From Haliotis cracherodii (taxonomy: Eukaryota): a stretch of DNA of 64,000 nucleotides. Shown piece by piece: positions 113 to 26,427 of the stretch. Each line of letters begins with the position of its first letter. The stretch's first letter is position 1. The notes beneath the pieces were generated by a model. The model was not told where the DNA came from and ran no database searches. It saw only the letters and a list, made by a program, of their open reading frames with translations. Where the stretch lies: contig NW_027266264.1 in the NCBI RefSeq assembly GCF_022045235.1, forward strand, positions 11,966,001 to 12,030,000, in the 5' to 3' direction. Made by a program: the position numbers and the translations under genes.

Positions 113-1082
113 AGTGTGCACAATGGAAAGGGCATGGGCGTACCTATGGAGGTCCCAGAAAAGCTTAATGTCAAAAGTAGCAGAAGAGACCAACAATAAG
201 GGTTGCATAGACGTCCTGACATCCGTGTCGGCTGCAGCAATCACTTTATCACTTTATCCTCTACCCTGTACTTGTTTGTCCTGTATGAGCATGCTTGCGT
301 TGGTATCCACTGACAGAGCAACTGAAGTGAAGGGGAAGTCATATTGCGGGTATTTGGCGGAAGAATCACTGGTTCTGTCTAACGATCCTATGATAGGTAA
401 TGAAGCAACAGCCAAGTCCAAAACATCTTGAAGTTGCTGCAGTTACTTGGCAAATGGCAAAGAGAGAGTGTGGATTGAATCCTTTACCATCTACCATAAT
501 TTCCAAAACGGTGCAAATCTTTGGTCACACAGGATCTGGTGACGTAAAAAGTGGGGGTCAAGGTGACCCACAATATTTAATTTTGAAAGGTGCTTGGAGT
601 GTGCACAATGGAAAGGGCATGGGCGTACCTATGGAGGTCCCAGAAAAGCTTAATGTCAAAAGTAGCAGAAGAGACCAACAATAAGGGTTGCATAGACGTC
701 CTGACATCCGTGTCGGCTGCAGCAATCACTTTATCACTTTATCCTCTACCCTGTACTTGTTTGTCCTGTATGAGCATGCTTGCGTTGGTATCCACTGACA
801 GAGCAACTGAAGTGAAGGGGAAGTCATATTGCGGGTATTTGGCGGAAGAATCACTGGTTCTGTCTAACGATCCTATGATAGGTAATGAAGCAACAGCCAA
901 GTCCAAAACATCTTGAAGTTGCTGCAGTTACTTGGCAAATGGCAAAGAGAGAGTGTGGATTGAATCCTTTACCATCTACCATAATTTCCAAAACGGTGCA
1001 AATCTTTGGTCACACAGGATCTGGTGACGTAAAAAGTGGGGGTCAAGGTGACCCACAATATTTAATTTTGAAAGGTGCTTGG
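113..1082. repeat. 485-bp direct tandem duplication (113-597, 598-1082)
   Basis: Two apparently identical copies giving duplicated ORF translations; AG microhomology at the junction. Confidence 0.95.
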
Positions 1083-2317: not shown

Positions 2318-3229
2318 GCATGGCATGAGGGTAGCTGCGCTGTAGTGACTTCCAGTGGGACAGGTGTTCTGGTGCTGTGGTATAAAAATTAGAACAAGCA
2401 CAAAATTGAAGATGGTCTTAGGATAAGAAATAATTAACTCTTTCACTCAGAACAATTTCACTTAACCCATGAATCAAAAGCGTATTTCTGCAGGAGGGAT
2501 GGCCATGCCTCCCATATCTTTGGGTCAACTTTTCTAATGTTGGGGGTCACACCTAAAGCTAATTTTAAAGGACTAAATATTGAGACAATATTCTGTTGAC
2601 TTTCAGATGTCTAGCCCAAACATTTGCAGTAGATATTGTGTTAAATGATAAATTAGCTGAGCATACTGGACAGTAAGACAATGTACAGAGCTAGACTCAA
2701 GCTTCAGCATATATCTCCATTATATTACGATACCCTGGACCCATTCACAAAAGCGTTGTTTTGAATGCAGTTCGAATGACAACACCAAAAATTGTCATAA
2801 CATTGGTTACAGAAACTATGCATAGGGAACGTACTCAACTTGCATTCTTATGTACCCTCTCAGCTATAACTGTGAATGGATTAAAGCCTAGGACTTCCAT
2901 TCCCTCAAGAAAACATTTCTAGCTAGGAGTTCATTCTTATTCAAAGTAAAATCCTTTATCTGACAAGTATTGAGGGCTCTCTGAAATGAGGCTAGTATTT
3001 TTAATGTAGATCTATGCTGAAATTTTCTTACGAATAGTTGATTTGATGTGGAGATTGTGATGTCACTTCCACAACAAAGCTTTTGTGTCACACACAGGGA
3101 TGAGGGAGGGTTGGGTTGTTGTTTTTCAAAAACACTGAAGTTTAACCGGACTCTAGGGAACTACATCATGTACGGGTATTTTGCAAAGGCATGCATCCAG
3201 CATACATGTATTTCAATTATGGATGAAAG

Positions 3230-3462
3230 AGGTTTGTTTCTTGTTTAATGACAGCACTCTATTCCAGCTATACGACGGCGGTCTGTAAATAATCGAGTCT
3301 GGACCAGACAATCCAGTGATTGACATCAGGAGCATCGATCCATGCAATAGGGATACAATGACATGCATCAAATAAGTCGGCGAGCCTGACCACCCCACCC
3401 TCGCCTCTTATGACAAGCATCGTTTGCTGCAGACCTATTCTACCCCAGATCTTCACGGGTCA
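3230..3462 (-). mobile_element. SINE-like family B, full length
   Basis: Begins GACCCGTGAAGATC; shared core CAATCACTGGATTGTCTGGTCCAGACTCGATTATTTACAGACCGCCG; TSD GATGAAAG (3222-3229, 3463-3470). Confidence 0.88.
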
Positions 3463-3529
3463 GATGAAAGTGGTAATTTGAGTGGCCTGAAATGAATCCA
3501 ATTGAACATGGAACAGGATATGAACTATA

Positions 3530-8552: not shown

Positions 8553-8787
8553 GTATCTCAGTGAGCTAGCACTATAAATCGGCATCAGTCCGGACTAGTA
8601 CAAGCAGACACACATACGCGTGCATGCCTGTCGCTATATACCGGGGTAAGTGCAATAATGTTGGACGCGACGTTGAACCCAATTTCGCCTCACCTCACAC
8701 ATTCGTGTCTGGTGTCCCCCGCCGTGATATTGCTGGAATATTGCTAAAAGCGGCGTAAAACCATACTCACTCCTTCACTCACTCACA
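8553..8787 (+). mobile_element. Two 5'-truncated SINEs in tandem (family D 8553-8699, family A 8708-8787)
   Basis: Homology to the 3' halves of 18047-18392 and 9541-9695; CATTCRTG at 8545, 8700 and 8788. Confidence 0.85.
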
Positions 8788-10955: not shown

Positions 10956-11215
10956 GACCCATGAAGATCAGGGGTATTATAGGTCTTCAGCAACCCATGC
11001 TTGCTGTAAAAAGTGACTCTGCTTGTCGTAAGAGGTGATTAAAAGGTTTGGGTGGTTAGGCGAGACTTGGTTGATGCATGTCGCATCCCATGGATCGATG
11101 CTCATGATGTCAATCACTGGATTGTCTGGTCCAGACTCGATTATTTACAGACCGCCGTCATATAGCTGGAATATTGCTGAGTGCGGCATTAAACAACAAA
11201 CAAACAACCAACCAA
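10956..11215 (+). mobile_element. SINE-like family B
   Basis: Begins GACCCATGAAGATC; same core; (CAAA/CAAC)n tail. Confidence 0.88.
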
Positions 11216-11389: not shown

Positions 11390-13100
11390 AATGCCATTTA
11401 AAAAGTGGTCAAATGTAACAAATGTTATATTTGGGATAACTCTTTCTTTGTAAAGAACAGATCTGAGGGCATCTCTGAGACTGTGACTTCGATTGAACCT
11501 TCCACACTCACTCCTACTACAGTTTTGTCTACCTCGGCCGCTTGTCGCTCCACGTCTACTTCTCAACATTCCAGATCCCCTGTTCGACCTTCTAAACATT
11601 TTTATCCTGGGGATCGGTCATCACTGGATCTCCCCTCTTTCTCTCAATCAAAACTTGCACAGGTCCTGTTATTGGGATTTCTCTCATGTGGATCGTCGAT
11701 CCTCCGATAAGGATCAGTTTGTGAAAACTACGTTTTCTGGGGATAAGCTTTCCTCCACAGGTCGATCGCAGAACCCGAATCAATGATGTTATAAGATGCG
11801 ACAAACGCAAGATCGGGACCGGCAGTCTGGGGCTTGGCAATTTCATTTTATATTCATTCGGTTGTCCGCCGAGCCTGTTCCTTTGCTGGCCTACATGCTC
11901 AGGTGACTTTCAACCCTGTCGCCTCTACTTTAAGTAATTGTACTCTGGAAATCCAACATCCGAATTTGGGCCGTTGGTTCTCACACAAGTCTCCAAGACT
12001 CATCTGTGGTGGAACGTGTACCTGATCCAGTTTCCTTGTATTACGTCTCTCTCTATAATAACCCTTGGCATGATTGTTTGAGTTTTGTGGATATTGTCGA
12101 TCATTCCTCTTATCGTCTGAACCCATCGATTCAATCACTGAGACAGTGACATTATTGAGGGTTCGATGAAGTGTAAAAGAGATGCCAAGTTGGTTGGTCC
12201 TATCGTCCATAGGAGATAGTGATACACCTGTATTGTAGATTCCTACATTGTTTTCTTTTGCTTCACAATAACGCTCACTCACTTTGGTTGGTTGGTTTGT
12301 AGTTAAACGCCGCACTCAGCAATATTCCAGCTATATGGCGGCGGTCTGCAAATAATCGAGTCTGGACCAGACAATCCAGTGATTAATATCATGAGCATAG
12401 AGCCACGCAATTGGGATCGATGACATGCATCAACCAAGTCAGCGAGCCCGAACACCCGATCCCGTTAGTCACCTTTTACGAGAAGCATAGTCACCGTTTA
12501 CAGCAAGCATGGGTTGCTGAAGACCTTTTCTACCCCGGAAGCTCACTCACGTATGAACATGTAACACATATTGTACCCGACTTCACGTGTGTTCCTCTGT
12601 TCACGTGTCAGGGTCACAACTGTCTTTGGGAGTGTTTCATTCCTATCAACGAGCTGTGTCTAATGACACTAGACAGTGCTACTTAATATGGTTCTGTATC
12701 ACTGATTAGCTCCAGCTTCCTCGTGTATATCCTACAGTTGTTGTCTTTATGGACCTTCCAATGATGGGATAAAATGCACAGTGTGAGATAATTTGTATGT
12801 ATATGTTATACTTATCCTATATCTCACACGCTATATGCCCCACCTTCCGTCCCCGCACCACATTTCCTCTAGCCAATTTAAGGTCCAGAAAGAGAATGAG
12901 TTGGCTGGGCAAACGACATGTTGAGCACATGTTGGTCAACCAGCAAGAAAAGCTTGCATGACCCAGATTGCTAGGAGGTGACCATGGTGACGCTTGGAGT
13001 GTTTGGGGGAATTTTTTTTTAAGAAGCTTGAAATCTGTTTTTAGGCACAGTTCCACTTAGGTTTGAAAGAAGAGAAATGCATAGTGTGAGATAGGATCCC
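11390..13100 (+). mobile_element. Decayed DIRS-like remnant in MRTO4 intron 2
   Basis: Peptide ISFYIHSVVRRACSFAGL...FNPVASTLSNCTLE resembles a DIRS YR C-terminus; GTGTGAGATA / TATCTCACAC motifs in alternating orientation at ~12781, ~12820 and ~13084 resemble DIRS terminal/ICR repeats; interrupted by a SINE. Confidence 0.45.
12283..12540 (-). mobile_element. SINE-like family B
   Basis: Same core; 10-bp TSD GCTCACTCAC (12273-12282, 12541-12550). Confidence 0.9.
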
Positions 13101-17592: not shown

Positions 17593-18046
17593 GTGCGGAA
17601 AATGTCAATTACTTTCAGCCAAACTGATTAAAGTTCTTTTATTTCTTATGTGCCATGGGACACTCACAAAGTTGTTGAAGTGTGCCCTGTGGAATTGAAG
17701 CGCACCACCAATAGGAATACCTTCAACGCATCTTCAGACTTGGGGAATGTCATTTCACCACAGTTAGATAATAAGCAGTTGCAATTGGAGACCTTCCTTT
17801 TCATTTGGACTGATAAATATGCTGAACCTCCAGGTTATTTTACGAATCATGAAGCCTGTAGATATGTTCCCTATACAGCTTTGTCCAGTTTAGTTTTGCG
17901 AAAGAACTTTTATCAATATACGCAATCACAAGTTTTTCTCTTCAGGCACCAAGAAAGCCATTATGATATTAACTGTGCCTTTGGATTCCAAACTGTGTAT
18001 GGCTTCAGCTAGTCACTTCTGTCCATTAAAAGTCTGTGTATGACAG

Positions 18047-20716: not shown

Positions 20717-20914
20717 GTACGGAGTTCCTCTCACTTGACATGATATTATGTGACTTGGTAGCTGCAGATGAAATGAAAATACTTTTCTTACAACAGATAG
20801 TCAGAAGAAAAGTTATGTTGAAAGTTAGTTAATGTCTGTGCCCTGTATTACTTTAGGCTATCAATCCACATTTAAGCTGGCACTGAAATATTGTTCAAAG
20901 CAGGGTTAAACCCA

Positions 20915-20949
20915 ACTCACTCACTCACTCACTCACTCACTCACTCACT
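20915..20949 (+). repeat. (ACTC)n microsatellite grown from a SINE tail
   Basis: Preceded by a SINE-type 3' fragment CTGAAATATTGTTCAAAGCAGGGTTAAACCC. Confidence 0.85.
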
Positions 20950-24049: not shown

Positions 24050-24531
24050 GTCATGACAGGAACCAACGATCCTGGGTTTGAGTCCCACATTTTCCCAGAT
24101 TATGATCCTTGGTTTGTCAGTACCATACCTCTGCTCATCAGCATCATTGATGTTTTCAGTAGAAATAACTAAGCCCAGCACCACTTTGGATTTCCTGATT
24201 CGGGGGTAGAAACGGTATCCAGCAACCCATGTTTGCTGTAATAGGTGACTATGCTTGTTGTAAAAGGCGACTAACGGGATCGGGTGGTTAGGCTCGCTGA
24301 CTTGGTTAATACATGTCGTCGATCCCAATTGCGTGGATCGATACTCATGATACCAATCACTGGATTGTCTGGTCCAGACTCGATTATTTCCAGTCATATA
24401 GCTGGAATATTGGTGAGTGCGGCGTTAGACAACTAACCAACCAACCAACCAAGTTTGGATTTCCTCCCACGATAAGCTGACATGCAGTGATTAAACTTGA
24501 AAACTGTTATTAACAACCCAACTCACTCACT
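24050..24531 (+). mobile_element. SINE family C copy split by a family B insertion
   Basis: GATTATG...GGTTTGTCAG(C/T)ACCATACCT shared with ~10215-10250; resumes TTTCCTCCCAC after the insert. Confidence 0.65.
24197..24453 (+). mobile_element. SINE-like family B nested in a family C SINE
   Basis: 12-bp TSD TTTGGATTTCCT (24185-24196, 24454-24465). Confidence 0.9.
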
Positions 24532-26194: not shown

Positions 26195-26427
26195 GAAGAC
26201 CCGGGTTCGAATTGGCCTTTAGCAACCCATGCTTACAGTAAAAGGCAACTAACGGGATAGGCTGGTCAGGCTGACAGACTTGGTTGATGCATGTCATTGT
26301 ATCCCAATTGCGTGGCTCGATGCTCATGTCAATCACTGAGTTGTCTGGTCTAGAGTCGATTATTTACAGAAGTCCATCATATAGCTGGAAAGTTGCTGAG
26401 TGCTGCGTTAAACAACACACAAACAAA
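26195..26427 (+). mobile_element. SINE-like family B
   Basis: Same core; 10-bp TSD TGTTACTGAA (26185-26194, 26428-26437). Confidence 0.88.

Follow-up and report, generated by a model that had tools for sequence, protein, structure and literature searches.

Short retroposons of 255 bp, the 'LP-SINEs', have been described from Haliotis and its relatives (Hdi_LP, Hmi_LP, Lsa_2 and Sgl_LP; Matetovici et al. 2016, PMC4758252). The ~70 bp at their 5' end are common to the 5' UTRs of Nimb-17_LMi, I-3_DR and RTE-9_CPB, and this head was proposed to act as a promoter, with Pr77 cited as an analogy (PMC4758252). In the accessible part of that report the head appears without a folded structure, the partner LINE is not identified, and how an LP-SINE is transcribed without a small-RNA head is left open. 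HDV-like ribozymes are found at the 5' ends of R2, RTE, Ingi/L1Tc (Pr77), R1, R4 and LOA elements (PMC5786205, PMC3383444), and Nimb/I is absent from the six LINE clades with 5' ribozymes listed in the available portion of PMC5786205. The xrRNAs of RNA viruses are found close to where the viral 3' UTR begins, sometimes as tandem copies, and the end that they protect lies directly at the fold (PMC8374639). That 2021 review, in the portion available, poses the existence of xrRNAs in cellular RNAs as a question.

We analysed a window of 64 kb from Haliotis cracherodii (contig NW_027266264.1, positions 11,966,001 to 12,030,000), in which a sequence-only reading had reported five SINE copies of ~230–255 bp without a tRNA head, four of them with clear target site duplications (TSDs). 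All five copies were confirmed, and a covariance model of the SINE head returned exactly these five in the window, at 25–43 bits. Copy 1 (3230–3462, minus strand) is full length and has a single hairpin module and a decayed head; its 8-bp 5' TSD lies at 3463–3470 (minus strand), with the partner repeat at 3222–3229. Copy 2 (10956–11215, plus strand) combines a full-length head, the top-scoring one in the window at 43 bits, with a doubled hairpin module, and is the one copy for which no TSD was found. Copies 3 (12283–12540, minus strand, 10-bp TSD), 4 (24197–24453, plus strand, 12-bp TSD) and 5 (26195–26427, plus strand, 10-bp TSD) are 5'-truncated, falling short of the head start by roughly 7–12 nt, copy 3 inside the strand called S2a below; the module is doubled in copies 3 and 4 and single in copy 5. 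Two copies, at 3462 (minus strand) and 10956 (plus strand), begin at the head; the two longest copies had been read as sharing a start. The 23-nt hairpin module is likewise duplicated in three copies, as had been noted. Short matches to a LINE 3' end and to LINE ORF2 also occur at 8721–8785 and 20883–20938 of the window.

In copy 1, whose head spans 3385–3462, the elements of the fold can be placed one after another on the minus strand. The 5' part of pseudoknot A occupies 3444–3459 (S1a 3459–3456, loop-1 U 3455, S2a 3454–3448, S1b 3447–3444), followed at 3429–3443 by loop 3, with the conserved AGAAUA (3441–3436), and S2b (3435–3429). The P3 stem and its loop lie at 3416–3428 and the T-loop-like hairpin (G-UAARA-GG-C) at 3400–3414. 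Six of the seven S2 pairs, with one mismatch in the 7-bp stem, and all four P3 pairs are intact; the CCC of pseudoknot B is mutated, the hairpin is broken and the CTAAC 3' of it is deleted. The 3' tail of this copy (3241–3285, minus strand), followed by a (CAAA)n repeat, is related to the 3' end of two-ORF LINEs of the genome.

The family is large: one 20-mer from the head matches the 1.18-Gb source genome exactly at 18,000 sites, against none for the reversed control. Counted genome-wide with exact 31-mers, the doubled-module form outnumbers the single form, 8,924 to 1,369. A doubled-module genomic copy measures 251 nt before the repeat tail. The window SINE resembles the LP-SINEs in its TSDs, its simple-repeat tail, its length of ~255 bp and its ~70-nt head homologous to a LINE 5' UTR, to the extent that the published elements are described in the available part of PMC4758252, and the scallop 'Nimb-17 homology' block in supplementary Fig. 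S2 of that report shows the same motif as the window SINE head. The family and its shared head are already in print as LP-SINEs (PMC4758252); the window family is very likely this published mollusc SINE, with Hdi_LP its presumed counterpart.

To locate the 5' end of the SINE, we chose 30 copies by a central 20-mer. Twenty-three of them begin at positions 1–3, and the 60 nt upstream of these 23 are unrelated to one another (26% mean identity), do not resemble the ribozyme described below and hold no common leader. In 19 of 45 TSD calls, counted by eye on a set biased to full-length copies, the first base falls within −1 to +3 of the head start. Because most copies start at the same place with unrelated upstream flanks, and the TSD calls agree, the head is the true 5' end and not the remnant of a tRNA head. 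A tRNA-derived SINE was also rejected on its promoter elements, with no A/B-box tRNA head seen. The heads of two near-intact genomic copies hold no A box, as had been claimed; a single exact B-box match lies at +163 in one of these copies and is absent from the other, and the window contains no tRNA gene.

In three unrelated short-element families, the SINE (n = 36) and two repeat families from metagenomes (n = 22 and 24), the sequence common to the copies begins 6 nt ahead of the loop-1 U and 2 nt ahead of S1. These three families differ in their letters at the start and in the distance from it to the invariant AGAAUA, so the 5' end is tied to the fold and not to letters or to the AGAAUA distance. 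An RNA 5' end must be defined in each round of copying, because SINE copies would otherwise carry the flank of their master. The suggestion that the head replaces a Pol III promoter holds to the extent that something in the head must define the 5' end instead, though probably not by self-cleavage, as the LINEs below suggest.

The head (~70 nt) is a real conserved RNA structure composed of two tandem pseudoknots and a T-loop-like hairpin. From 5' to 3' the layout is S1a, U, S2a (7 bp), S1b, a loop ending in AGAAUA, S2b, P3a, a loop (c), P3b, U, the hairpin GUCG UAARAGG CGAC, UAA and c'. We located the motif by pattern scans of virus contigs, metagenome contigs (at least 122 stretches) and genome bins, and grouped 150 motif-bearing sites into 42 clusters. 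In an anchored test of all 42 clusters, misses included, strands paired better with their own partners than with swapped ones for S2, P3 and PK2 (permutation p = 5e-5 each). An S2 score of at least 12 was reached in 21 of 42 clusters against 16% of swaps, and a PK2 score of at least 8 in 33 of 42 against 64%; all four pairs formed in 18 of 42 clusters for P3 (7% of swaps) and in 15 of 42 for S1 (11% of swaps). The viral copies alone (n = 7) gave permutation p values of 1.5e-4 for S2, 0.002 for P3 and 0.035 for PK2, and PK2 is weak or absent in three of the seven.

Covariation was also scored in alignment A3, whose 19 divergent heads were chosen and whose starts were set from the predicted S2, so that it leans toward structure for S1 and S2 and is more fitted than the anchored test; here 86% of cells were paired, with 90 two-sided changes, compared with 65% and 33 after shuffling, and slid-partner controls paired in only 34–43%. 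Two-sided changes occur at 7/7 pairs of S2, 2/4 of S1, 3/4 of P3 and 3/3 of PK2. The proposal of a structured RNA is borne out by these figures, as is that of a second pseudoknot crossing the hairpin, although its CCC is lost in the copy at 3385–3462. The first pseudoknot also exists, but in a different form from the one drawn from sequence alone: the covarying pairs favour a second stem of 7 bp, not 8 bp, with a single-U loop 1 and the register CCCG/CGGG in place of ACCC/GGGT, the register being judged by eye on A3.

The hairpin stem does not covary, an invariance that is partly ascertainment because the search patterns fixed the stem. A fifth flanking pair of this hairpin varies coherently (G-C, G-U, U-A) in LINE copies that were found by protein. 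The loop, G-UAARA-GG-C, has what we take to be T-loop spacing, which suggests a possible tertiary contact. Nested-only folding gives modest z-scores of −1.3 to −2.0. A covariance model of the motif (R1) scored held-out relatives (for example, L235, L282, L330, L331 and L336) at 48–69 bits and decayed copies at 31–45 bits, with pattern-selected chance matches at no more than 28 bits. Two metagenome subfamilies (the L292 and L252 clusters, 9 loci each) have lost the 5' half of pseudoknot A and keep pseudoknot B with a swapped CCAGG/CCUGG.

A paired change is also seen within the source genome: the 7-bp stem of an older-looking SINE subfamily (L395, L408, L411) reads GGGGA/UCCCC, against GAAGA/UCUUC in the main family. 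At locus L331 from a genome bin (602–681, minus strand), a hairpin of ~60 nt is inserted in loop 3 of pseudoknot A with the helices intact. A short frame downstream of that motif begins with an NVRG motif, which we take to be endonuclease-like.

The fold had been said to fit no known ribozyme class, and we agree. No Rfam family falls on the motif, either at the gathering threshold across the window or in E-value mode on decayed, intact, viral, metagenome-assembled-genome and LINE heads. On intact heads, the hammerhead, twister, twister-sister, pistol, hatchet and hairpin ribozymes gave no covariance-model match at E ≤ 5–10, nor could the HDV, twister, hammerhead or pistol topologies be fitted to it manually. 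The HDV-like class was rejected for the SINE head on its order of helices: the covarying order is a-b-a'-b'-d-c-d'-e-e'-c', as opposed to P1-P2-P3-P1.1-P3'-P1'-P1.1'-P4-P2' with an L3 of UCCNCGY in HDV, and no HDV-family model matched the motif.

To find LINEs carrying the motif, we used as query an ORF1 that adjoins a motif in a genome-bin contig (L335) and is 45% identical to ORF1s of the source genome; it gave 107 scored matches there. Among 20 two-ORF LINE loci examined from these matches, 19 have the motif upstream, at 55–67 bits, and the twentieth is 5'-truncated. These LINEs are 5.7–6.2 kb long, with the motif several hundred nt before ORF1. In the two elements scanned (L439 and L440), ORF2 holds APE, RT and RNase H domains and ORF1 has no Pfam match; judged from these domains, an ORF1 followed by such an ORF2 would be in keeping with a Nimb/I-group LINE. 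The SINE head is 80–83% identical over 63 nt to the motif of four two-ORF LINEs, and the SINE tail (copy L016) is 93% identical over 28 nt to the 3' end of L440. The SINE head was likely taken from the 5' UTR of the RNase H-bearing LINEs of this genome, which are candidates for the partner LINE sought, in its accessible part, by PMC4758252.

The LINEs start 57 nt upstream of the motif, which thus lies at +58, and these 57 nt form a minimal HDV-like module: a 7-bp P1 with G1-U, P2, P3, an L3 of UCCUCGU, P1.1 and the J4/2 C, with P4 nearly absent. Its top Rfam matches are RF02682 (E = 0.0026) and RF00094 (E = 0.17), both below the gathering score. TSDs end at ribozyme G1 in all four full LINEs. 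By its layout, the module is a predicted HDV-like ribozyme that would mark the LINE 5' end, placed at +1 to +57 like the 5' ribozymes of R2, RTE, Ingi/L1Tc (Pr77), R1, R4 and LOA as described in the consulted portions of PMC5786205 and PMC3383444. A LINE with a bipartite short partner is also found in L1Tc/NARTc (PMC5786205, PMC3383444). Unlike those systems, as far as these sources describe them, the SINE here is without the ribozyme and retains the next domain instead, and the helix order of the motif is not that of HDV. If these LINEs are Nimb/I, they would add a clade to the ribozyme-bearing ones given in PMC5786205. A near-identical 57-nt module is found at the exact 5' end of several hundred young two-ORF LINEs that differ in their ORFs (loci L418–L479, for example L439:865–921).

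The ribozyme stays attached to the motif. By pattern, its adjacent end is kept in 557 of 597 LINE motif copies; by inspection, the ribozyme or a mutated form of it is kept in 38 of 38 copies, including 11 chosen for failing the pattern. None of these 38 starts at the motif, and the pile-up of starts predicted there was not seen. An HDV descriptor found its positive control and had no match upstream of 254 SINE, viral and metagenome motifs. Twenty-four SINE heads are preceded by the last 6 nt of the ribozyme; these look like chance, and none of the 10 inspected has a ribozyme. The sequence-only reading had proposed that the head itself cleaves. This is unlikely, because such a cut would remove the upstream ribozyme that LINE copies keep.

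The motif also occurs in six RNA-virus-like contigs, on the coding strand, 4–196 nt past the last long ORF and 11–112 nt from contig ends that may be incomplete; two of them, L061 and L361, carry tandem copies. Five of the six were scanned with Pfam: four gave a viral domain each (A21 peptidase capsid, toti-like RdRP, noda-like capsid, tombus-like RdRP), and L061 gave none. A 212-kb DNA-virus contig (L063) has the motif between genes, ~140 nt before an ORF. By eye, a separate hairpin, placed like the last helix of the ribozyme in LINEs, lies just 5' of the motif in viral contigs L061, L062, L063, L064, L066 and L068.

A loose viral scan returned 120 stretches that we regard as noise; these were excluded from clustering, and 21 of them served as model controls. 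Later viral scans added only L361 and a pair of phage-like contigs of the same sequence (L506:353–425 and L502:690–762), with a held-out match of 36 bits between genes, in a stretch rich in hairpins. In this one independent, pattern-found case, a possible prokaryotic-virus member, S1 (4/4), an 8-bp S2, P3 and a 5-bp PK2 can all be drawn by eye. A named phage collection gave no motif match. Among 12 loci matched in genome collections, five are chance-like (18–27 bits), and seven score 42–70 bits and lie at contig ends or in AT-rich, simple-repeat or LINE-like DNA. Given those surroundings, we rejected bacterial membership for the seven and read them as eukaryotic contamination. The prokaryote bins L326, L329, L330, L331, L334, L335 and L336 hold eukaryotic retroposon DNA, likely through host contamination or chimeric contig ends.

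The head module is probably not a ribozyme. As its putative function we favour, by analogy with viral xrRNAs and with a probability of roughly 45%, a passive block to 5'-to-3' exoribonucleases that would trim SINE RNA from host transcripts. The fold is shown by covariation, and its distribution, its boundaries and the LINE architecture are observed; transcription, exonuclease resistance, ribozyme activity and mobilisation by these LINEs are what we infer. A SINE copy would be transcribed within a host Pol II transcript; decay of the XRN1/XRN2 type would remove the host leader and stall some 2 nt short of the first helix; and LINE ORF2 would copy the protected RNA of ~250 nt via its LINE-like tail, so that each new copy has an unchanged start. 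In the LINE, the 5' end would be set by the predicted HDV-like ribozyme, with the fold following as a second domain; for RNA viruses, the expected product is a stable fragment of the 3' UTR. That LINEs keep the upstream ribozyme fits a passive block and fits neither a cutter nor a start-site promoter. XRN1 requires a 5' phosphate, and a ribozyme cut leaves none.

The motif resembles viral xrRNAs (flavivirus 1a/1b/2, Tombus/Luteo, Benyviridae) in being compact, pseudoknotted, located in viral 3' UTRs and sometimes tandem, as these are described in the available part of PMC8374639, and the head fold is predicted to place a conserved pseudoknot at the protected 5' end. Compared by description, it differs from classes 1 and 2 and from Tombus/Luteo in having tandem pseudoknots and a T-loop-like hairpin in place of a three-way junction or the plant-virus stem-loop/pseudoknot layout. 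It also sits in cellular retroposons, none of which are listed in the accessible text of the 2021 review (PMC8374639). This unlikeness to the described classes counts against an xrRNA-like block, as do the lack of trimmed insertions among the 38 LINE copies, the weak PK2 of three viral copies and the subfamilies without the 5' half of pseudoknot A. Nor is there an evident reason for a ribozyme-bearing LINE to keep a second block. Somewhat more tentatively, the fold may represent a new class of exonuclease-blocking structure that has been exchanged between LINEs, SINEs, RNA viruses unrelated to one another, a large DNA virus and perhaps a phage.

The position of the motif in LINEs and viruses could also be explained by a host-factor or ribosome-binding element, which would aid translation of uncapped LINE and viral RNAs and dock the SINE near LINE protein synthesis, as Alu docks via SRP9/14. 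The motif sits right behind the ribozyme on a predicted-uncapped LINE RNA and before ORF1, precedes an ORF closely in L063, has invariant exposed letters and occurs in viral 3' UTRs, where cap-independent enhancers occur. Such an element alone would leave unexplained why the 5' end is fixed in three families at 2 nt ahead of the first helix, and we regard this account as doubtful.

Cleavage just 5' of the fold, either by the fold itself as a new class of ribozyme or by a host endonuclease to which it is a signal, for example RNase P, would account for that fixed spacing as well as for the invariant core and covarying pseudoknots. Ribozymes are known from the UTRs of linear RNA viruses, mostly 5' and exceptionally 3' according to the consulted part of PMC13725137, and where the motif sits in viruses is therefore not in itself evidence against cleavage. 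With no Rfam ribozyme match on the motif, and with an upstream ribozyme that cleavage would strip from LINEs whose TSDs nonetheless end at G1, this reading is unlikely and would require the motif to be inactive within the LINE.

More improbable again is the 'LP' proposal of PMC4758252, in which the head serves at the DNA level as an internal promoter; the head might also have a role as RNA, in the manner of Pr77, whose dual nature as promoter and ribozyme is on record in the available part of PMC3383444. The 5'-terminal position in SINEs and some LINEs suits a promoter, but compensatory pairs and presence in viruses with RNA-only cycles, a start tied to a helix and not to invariant letters, and a module at +58 where no inspected LINE copy begins do not. 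Least probable is a binding site for LINE ORF1p/ORF2p that fixes the end of reverse transcription and the 5' junction, for which the 5' protein-binding region of R2 is an analogue and the LINE-like head and tail of the SINE speak, given that viral copies, which would have to be kept for another reason, preserve the pairs without LINE proteins and that reverse transcription in LINEs runs 57 nt past the motif.

The head is apparently an undescribed structured RNA module in a known SINE: in the open-access literature searched, we found no description of the fold, of its presence in viruses or of its location just downstream of an HDV-like ribozyme in the LINEs that are partner candidates. A ~70-nt fold with natural paired variants, next to an HDV-like ribozyme that serves as a built-in positive control, makes both the transcription of LP-SINEs and the existence of cellular xrRNAs testable. 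If an xrRNA-like block is indeed at work, RNA decay itself would carve short retroposons that have neither promoter nor ribozyme from host transcripts; this would be a third route to SINE RNA and an example of an xrRNA in cells. The sharing of one compact module by retroposons and unrelated viruses would mean that RNA parts pass between the two, and the fold could serve as a new RNA-stabilising part.

A dense cluster of LINE heads lies at about 20.9–21.75 Mb of G000:C2 in the source genome, with dozens of heads within 0.85 Mb, several of them nested in other LINEs, and is possibly a piRNA-cluster-like region.
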